DNA of 10,778 bases from positions 1 to 10,778 of IMG/VR virus record IMGVR_UViG_2579779002_000007. One strand, 5' to 3'. A model generated the notes under the pieces. The model ran no database searches. It had not been told where the DNA came from and was given only the letters and a program-made list of their open reading frames with translations. Below, piece by piece: positions 10,234 to 10,778 of the stretch. Source of the DNA: a virus. Lineage: Duplodnaviria; Heunggongvirae; Uroviricota; Caudoviricetes. The stretch's first letter is position 1, and the number at the start of each line of letters is the position of its first letter. Both the position numbers and the translations under genes were made by a program.

Positions 10234-10316
10234 AATTATGCCTCACTGTATTGACAACACAGAGCCTGAAGCTCTGACCTACTGTTTCACCCATGATCCA
10301 TGCTGGGGTAATCTAA

Positions 10317-10778
10317 GGAAGGTGCGAATAAGCAGGTCATTTCTTCCCAAGCTGACTCGCTGATTAAAATTTCGCGGATCTGGGCCGATTTTTTTCCCGC
10401 AAACACATCGAATCAGCCTATTTAGGCTATTTTTTCCACCATTTCTGGCGTTATTTCCGGTTTTTACTGAGATCTCTCCCACTGACGTATCATTTGGTCC
10501 ACCCGAAACAGGTTGGCCAGGGTGAATAACATCGCCAGTTGGTTATCGTTTTTCAGCAGCCCCTTGTATCTGGCTTTCACGAAGCCGAACTGCCGCTTGA
10601 TGATGCGAAACGGGTGCTCCACCCTGGCACGGATGCTGGCTTTCATGTATTCGATGTTGATGGTCGTTTTGTTCTTGCGCGGATGCTGCTTCAAGGTTTT
10701 TACCCTGCCGGGACGCTCGGCGATCAGCCAGTCCACATCCACCTCGGCCAGCTCCTCGCGCTGTGGCGCTCCTTGGTA
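10317..10778 (-). mobile_element. IS5-like insertion sequence (IS5 family, IS5 group; divergent from canonical IS5, possibly ISKpn26-like), terminal IR plus 3' part; continues beyond the window
   Basis: Terminal repeat GGAAGGTGCGAATAAG at 10317-10332, preceded by CTAA (10313-10316), which fits the IS5 YTAR target preference. Transposase C-terminus on the minus strand. The noncoding end differs from my recollection of IS5 at many positions. Confidence 0.85.
10464..10778 (-). CDS. IS5-family transposase (InsH-like), C-terminal fragment; N-terminus outside window
   Basis: …[64 protein letters not shown] resembles the IS5 InsH C-terminus. The frame remains open to the window edge. Confidence 0.85.

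Follow-up and report, generated by a model that had tools for sequence, protein, structure and literature searches.

An ISKpn26-type insertion sequence (IS) lies in the immC immunity region of a P1-like phage-plasmid, close upstream of coi, in the stretch of 10,778 nucleotides that was analysed as a whole and is hereafter called the window. This allele is a rare variant of a frequent phenomenon among P1 relatives, the presence of an IS between coi and its promoter. [quoted passage not shown]

The insertion point can be placed to the nucleotide. Positions 9063-10316 of the window align by blastn with positions 93232-94485 of P1 (NC_005856) at 95.5% identity and without gaps, and the P1-type homology ends at 10316; among P1-type phages and several hundred P1-like plasmids, no P1-type match extends further. 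The following 16 nucleotides (10317-10332) are the terminal inverted repeat IRR, which reads GGAAGGTGCGAATAAG, the repeat of the IS5 family, and 446 further bases of the IS come after it. A first reading of this DNA from its sequence only, without database searches (hereafter the sequence-only reading), had put the IS end at 10317, 83 bp from the start of coi and next to a CTAA target, and both the end of the alignment and the sequence itself show this to be exact to the base: 83 nt (10234-10316) separate the coi ATG from the IS, and the target copy CTAA occupies 10313-10316. Read on the coi strand, this tetranucleotide is TTAG, in which the final base of the last sense codon in imcA is followed by the TAG stop of this gene. 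Since the imcA coding sequence of P1 occupies 94482-94595 on the minus strand and the last P1 nucleotide before the IS is 94485, CTAA contains the imcA stop and the IS is located in the 18-bp spacer between imcA and imcB. No ORF is broken by the IS, and insertion at CTAA leaves both imcA and imcB intact. One copy of CTAA is visible in the window (10313-10316), and the position of the second is beyond the window end. The sequence-only reading was equally correct in describing the IS as co-oriented with coi and c1: the transposase, coi and c1 are all encoded on the minus strand, and the 3′-end of the transposase, with IRR, is beside coi. Because the junction is also present in an independent complete plasmid, that of Escherichia coli strain 1332KP, it is neither a product of chance nor an assembly artefact. 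A GTG-started ORF of 67 aa (10279-10482, minus strand) starts in the IS, crosses IRR into P1 DNA and ends 13 nt beyond the imcB ATG. Its counterpart in 1332KP is the RefSeq hypothetical protein WP_349236771.1; the ORF has no match in Pfam and probably exists only as a side effect of the junction.

The element belongs to the IS5 family, as had been proposed, but it is not IS5 proper. The window contains its 3′ 462 bp (10317-10778, minus strand), where it is cut by the contig end, and this part is 98-99.5% identical to copies named as ISKpn26 family by PGAP and 88.8% identical to canonical IS5. The full copy in 1332KP, which differs from that of the window by 3 mismatches in 462, is 1196 bp long and shares 99.2% identity with other ISKpn26 copies, against 91.7% with canonical IS5. 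Judged by these identities, the element is ISKpn26 rather than IS5. Profile matches identify the C-terminal 104 codons and the stop of a DDE transposase (10464-10778, open frame 10467-10778, minus strand): both Pfam PF01609 (DDE_Tnp_1; E-value 7e-12, above the gathering score) and NCBIfam NF033581 (IS5 family transposase; E-value 1.3e-21) match at the profile end, and the NF033581 score is under the full-length cut-off solely because the contig end cuts the protein. The 16-bp terminal inverted repeats, GGAAGGTGCGAA(C/T)AAG, are represented by IRR in the window and by both repeats in the full copy of 1332KP, whose IRR is identical to that of the window and whose opposite end carries the IRL variant GGAAGGTGCGAACAAG. 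With the 16-bp inverted repeat GGAAGGTGCGAAYAAG, a DDE transposase and a 4-bp target of the YTAR type (CTAA), the element resembles other members of the ISKpn26 family, and nothing structural distinguishes it from simple ISKpn26 insertions; its location alone, in the imcA-imcB spacer of a P1-like immC, is particular. The 3′ untranslated region of the IS also contains a terminator-like hairpin, AGCCTATTTAGGCT followed by ATTTTTT, at 10415-10428 on the plus strand, antisense to the transposase.

The immC elements of P1 have been kept on the c1 side of the insertion. Here, the operator and promoter positions of P1 are those of the GenBank annotation NC_005856, transferred through the ungapped alignment, and the promoter logic of immC is taken from the literature (PMC8546580). 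The c1 gene (9062-9913, minus strand), whose 283-aa product is the primary repressor of the lytic functions, scores 611.6 bits with the NCBIfam equivalog phage_rep_C1, whose cut-off is 500, and aligns over its full length to P1 c1. Upstream of it, the two Pc1 hexamers (9981-9986 and 10005-10010, minus strand) show 0 mismatches to P1, and the bivalent operator Oc1ab (9997-10024, minus strand) matches P1 at 17 of 17 positions in Oc1a and 16 of 17 in Oc1b. The coi gene for the C1 inactivator (69 aa; 10024-10233, minus strand) encodes a protein identical to P1 Coi at 67 of 69 residues, and the same alignment spans the annotated coi of phages JL22, phi456 and RCS47. The operator Oc1c inside coi (10180-10196, minus strand) matches P1 at all 17 positions, and imcB (31 aa; 10199-10294, minus strand), which overlaps the 5′-end of coi and whose ATG is 22 nt from the IS end, encodes a protein identical to P1 ImcB. 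The order c1-coi-imcB with Oc1a, Oc1b and Oc1c is thus as in P1. According to the P1 map, the far side of the IS corresponds to imcA, P1coi (formerly P99d) with Oc1d, Oc1e, P4cre and loxP. In P1, P1coi/Oc1d forms one continuous stretch with imcA-imcB-coi and lies about 230 bp upstream of coi; in the window, IS sequence stands at these positions instead. The IS is therefore placed inside the P1coi-imcA-imcB-coi-c1 transcription unit, in which P1coi is the only known promoter for coi. Comparison of the region upstream of coi with reference P1 confirms that the IS is within the immC regulatory region and separates coi from its upstream elements. The sequence-only reading had supposed that imcA and imcB as well as upstream promoters and operators were removed or displaced; this holds for imcA, P1coi/Oc1d and Oc1e but not for imcB, Oc1c and Oc1ab/Pc1, which are kept with 0-1 mismatch. 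Moreover, in the sole full-length record with the junction (1332KP), the elements beyond the IS have not been deleted but moved away by 1196 bp.

As the window ends inside the IS, its own far side is unseen, and the nearest view of it is offered by this sister plasmid. Among 5,426 complete E. coli genomes, the identical junction occurs in one record, plasmid unnamed1 of strain 1332KP (L004), where the IS of 1196 bp occupies 12198-13393 with CTAA on both sides. Beyond it are intact imcA, P1coi/Oc1d, Oc1e, loxP, cra and cre, and P1coi is about 140 nt upstream of IRL; to judge from this arrangement of the sequence, the 1332KP insertion is a clean transposition. No record in PLSDB was found with the junction query, and the exact junction pattern had no occurrence in GTDB species representatives or JGI metagenomes, while its only occurrence in IMG/VR was plasmid p1_020032. 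The window and the 1332KP plasmid are about 97% identical overall and differ by 13 SNPs in c1, which makes them distinct replicons. The substitutions are unevenly spread around the junction, with 15 in 9140-9949 (c1 and the c1-coi spacer) followed by 0 over the 485 bp that cross it (9950-10434), and this pattern suggests either that recombination took place beside an insertion common to both replicons or that two separate insertions hit this site in one orientation. The transposase of 1332KP has an internal stop at about position 12838 of L004 (RDP*MHQ; TAG, where other copies have GAG), and by its sequence this IS copy would probably move only when helped in trans. As ant and ref are frameshifted in this record too, sequencing errors are possible.

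It is conceivable that the IS in the genome of the window marks the boundary of a rearrangement or of cargo, with imcA, P1coi and Oc1d deleted or far off and coi left without a promoter. The contig ends inside the IS with its far side out of view, and its opposite end is also an IS, so that IS fragments stand at both ends (IS903B at 1-375 and ISKpn26 at 10317-10778). In addition, phage RCS47 has an ISKpn26-like element in imcA whose flanks differ, i.e., without a matching target duplication, and which is followed by IS1 and dmsA cargo. However, short-read assembly ends contigs at any multi-copy IS, and a contig end is therefore not evidence for such a boundary; the sole complete record with the junction is a clean insertion with duplicated CTAA. 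We regard a rearrangement at this point as quite unlikely.

In the favoured explanation, a 1196-bp ISKpn26 would have transposed into the CTAA within the 18-bp imcA-imcB spacer of a P1-like phage-plasmid. c1 would still be made and autoregulated from Pc1 and, since Pc1/Oc1ab and c1 are untouched, maintenance of the plasmid-prophage should be unaffected. Transcripts initiated at P1coi, or weakly within the IS, that run across the IS in the sense direction would be the sole source of Coi. Because Coi would then depend on sense read-through of the IS, its synthesis should stay C1-controlled; it should be as without the IS, or else polarity should weaken or delay it, and no activation would be expected. 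The net effect on lysis and lysogeny would be small and, if anything, in the direction of tighter lysogeny. The evidence for read-through comes from IS5, which is about 89-92% identical to the element of the window and in which transcription from the transposase end crosses the whole element into fucAO (PMC11894529). A scan for intrinsic terminators on the sense strand of the IS and the 83-bp spacer gave none that was convincing, with only weak terminator-like hairpins. The hairpin at 10415-10428 was considered as a terminator that would prove polarity and was rejected, being antisense (plus strand) and irrelevant for the orientation in the window. A partial, Rho-dependent polarity is plausible along the roughly 1.2 kb of RNA, which would be poorly translated, and more so with a broken transposase frame as in 1332KP; a decrease in Coi would be at least as likely as an increase. 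According to work reportedly from the Schuster laboratory, C1 mediates looping between Oc1ab/Oc1c and Oc1d/Oc1e; the distance between Oc1c and Oc1d would rise from about 290 to about 1490 bp, and autoregulation could also be altered. As for the consequences of reduced coi expression, a CRISPRi screen found coi and imcB non-essential for lytic growth of P1 (PMC10695390). Phage phi456, which carries ISKpn26 in imcA, 36 bp from the site in the window, is reported to be released spontaneously at about 1e7 PFU/ml (PMC10967188), in a comparison where the IS has the opposite orientation and the phage also has other rearrangements.

The sequence-only reading had pointed to activation of coi by the transposase-distal end of the IS, as known for IS5. 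Accordingly, the co-oriented IS would raise or deregulate coi through its 3′-end or by read-out from the transposase promoter and would shift the balance towards lysis or instability. The geometry is indeed the one needed in both known cases of activation by IS5, namely co-orientation with the 3′-end beside the activated gene; the 3′-end of the IS has A7 and AAATTTT tracts, and IS5 read-through is documented. The first of the two cases, activation of glpFK by the IB region of IS5 (Zhang and Saier, 2009; PMC2753651), likewise has an IS5-family element upstream, co-oriented and with its 3′-end proximal, but depends on a downstream resident promoter, an IHF site and A-tracts in phase. Placed by itself before lacZ, IB has no promoter activity; its target is a resident promoter located about 125 bp downstream, and mutation of the IHF core TCAA in IS5 halves the activation (PMC2753651). 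In the window, by contrast, no annotated or predicted promoter is present between the IS and coi: the P1 annotation has no promoter between imcA and coi, and a promoter scan of the IS end and the coi upstream region found 0 promoter-like sites at 9 of 12 matches. A hybrid promoter candidate from a permissive scan, ATGACC-19 bp-TAGATT (8/12), was no better than shuffled sequences and was discarded. The predicted IHF site (TCAA-N4-TT, in the 3′ 177 bp of the IS) reads TCGATGTGTT and not TCAAGGCATT at the aligned position, so that the core responsible for about half of the IB effect is TCGA here, and the distal 65 bp or so are poorly conserved with IS5. The idea that the IB activator of IS5 is conserved in the window element was accordingly dropped on alignment to IS5.

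The second case, the fusion promoter of IS5 and fucAO (Zhou et al., 2025; PMC11894529), resembles the present one in that the IS is co-oriented and transcription from or upstream of IRL reaches the operon. There, the IS5 transposase promoter, which is essentially silent alone, is switched on by a Crp site beside IRL, whereas 1332KP has a complete, C1-repressed P1coi about 140 nt from IRL. Since the upstream element is this complete C1-repressed promoter, the output would be the native regulated transcript in a lengthened form and not a new constitutive one. Furthermore, the read-through RNA carries c1 too, and any extra Coi would therefore be accompanied by extra C1. IS5-type activation of coi is thus very unlikely, and the promoter and IHF elements that IB needs are not evident in the window.

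A survey of P1-like E. coli records places the insertion in a wider context. The counts were obtained with junction queries of 76-80 nt, for which more than 80% coverage is reached only by records carrying the IS end. An IS5-family repeat at the CTAA of the window was found in 4 of 701 records, namely 1332KP in the orientation of the window, and BL12, BHD6 and WCHEC020032, which have canonical IS5 in the opposite orientation (BL12 and WCHEC020032 were inspected directly). Far more records (64 of 698) have an IS5-family repeat at an ATAG tetranucleotide 36 bp further into imcA, and 50 of 698 have IS1 4 bp before this ATAG. Altogether, 118 junction-confirmed IS insertions fall within a 40-bp stretch of imcA in about 700 records. 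With a 500-bp query for the empty site, 567 of 701 records were intact and 134 had no intact match, and some IS in the interval between coi and P1coi is present in about 17-19% of the P1-like E. coli records, or roughly one in six. The equivalent positions of the hotspot in relatives are 3302-3305 in L006, 4732 in L007 and 4350-4353 in L002. In pTetA_020022, ISKpn26 is at the ATAG of imcA with ATAG duplicated, and in the one IS1 record that was inspected (L007) about 64 bp of imcA is deleted.

These counts bear on another explanation, in which the IS blocks essentially all transcripts from P1coi. Coi would then be absent upon infection or derepression, c1 would be expressed from Pc1 alone, the element would be biased towards stable carriage as a plasmid, and recurrent insertions would be selected. 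The 118 insertions in the 40-bp imcA stretch and the 134 records without an intact empty site are in line with it; the premature stop in the 1332KP transposase would favour Rho-dependent polarity, and the nonsense codon in pacB of the window's replicon (see below) is consistent with a decaying prophage. On the other hand, the sense strand has no intrinsic terminator, IS5 permits read-through into fucAO (PMC11894529), and particles of phi456 are still released although its imcA carries an IS. The high frequency itself may stem from a structural hotspot, or from a few ancestral events that descent or recombination has spread, rather than from selection. A complete block of Coi synthesis is therefore possible but doubtful, and C1-controlled read-through after simple insertion is preferred.

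The insertions in named relatives resemble that of the window to different degrees. RCS47, phi456 and pTetA_020022, which carry imcA::ISKpn26, share with it the type of IS and the location in the coi-P1coi leader, only 36 bp away, so that coi is split from P1coi in all of them. They differ in that the IS has entered at ATAG inside imcA and disrupted this gene, with the transposase reading away from coi, whereas the window has the IS at the CTAA of the imcA stop, with both small ORFs intact and the transposase directed towards coi. This difference in orientation could matter for coi expression, because the hairpin at 10415-10428 would face transcripts from P1coi in insertions of the opposite orientation (L006, phi456 and RCS47) but not in that of the window. 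Conversely, pBL12EC-2, BHD6 (CP141792) and p1_020032 have the identical insertion point (CTAA) but a different element in the opposite orientation, canonical IS5, with an identity of 88.8-91.7%. From the sequences, the canonical IS5 and the ISKpn26 of the window at CTAA are taken as independent events at the same tetranucleotide. An 8-bp match between the flank of IRR in RCS47 and the flank in the window was dismissed as TTAG plus chance. A search of the literature library for IS in imcA or upstream of coi returned no relevant paper. ISKpn26 in the leader of a P1-like immC is already known, as RCS47 is annotated with an interrupted imcA.

At least four independent events can thus be told apart in this leader: ISKpn26 at ATAG, IS1 4 bp before it, canonical IS5 at CTAA, and, likewise at CTAA but in the other orientation, ISKpn26. 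One general view of them would be that the P1coi-coi leader is a preferred landing site for IS that uncouple Coi from its promoter, that such insertions are selected in the plasmid state as a re-tuning of lysis and lysogeny, and that it depends on the orientation of the IS whether read-through preserves Coi or Coi is lost; we consider this unlikely as a whole. If the pattern were due to selection and not to common descent or a structural hotspot, IS would be a common natural means of tuning induction in P1-like phage-plasmids. Resistance genes are widely carried by these phage-plasmids, whose plasmid or lytic course is set by the balance between C1 and Coi. The insertion in the window is probably near-neutral in itself, and the hotspot at the population level is probably the only part worth following up.

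The rest of the window contains further departures from its relatives. At the contig start, positions 1-375 lie in an IS903B-like element that is 96.5% identical to the IS903B copy of 1332KP and whose terminal repeat ends at 375. The sequence after 375 aligns just inside the 5′-end of 1332KP hsdS, a gene for type I restriction, and from this alignment hsdS may be interrupted. The pacB gene (5855-7339, plus strand) has a nonsense codon, E147*, at 6293-6295 (TAA, where 1332KP has GAA), and is otherwise 99.8% identical over 495 aa. If this codon is real, the element would be defective in packaging; the replicon may then no longer be a productive phage, and any effect on lysis and lysogeny would be moot. 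Between pacB and c1, a second module of the immunity type occupies 7434-7644 and 7697-9029 on the plus strand and consists of an isrK-like RNA (59 bits), a C4 antisense RNA (75 bits), an icd-like ORF and a 370-aa Ant with ORF6N and KilAC domains. Reference P1 has no c4-icd-ant module at this position, and RCS47 and many plasmids do. Judged by likeness to known systems, this c4 RNA-icd-ant module beside c1 is a putative alternative route of anti-repression.
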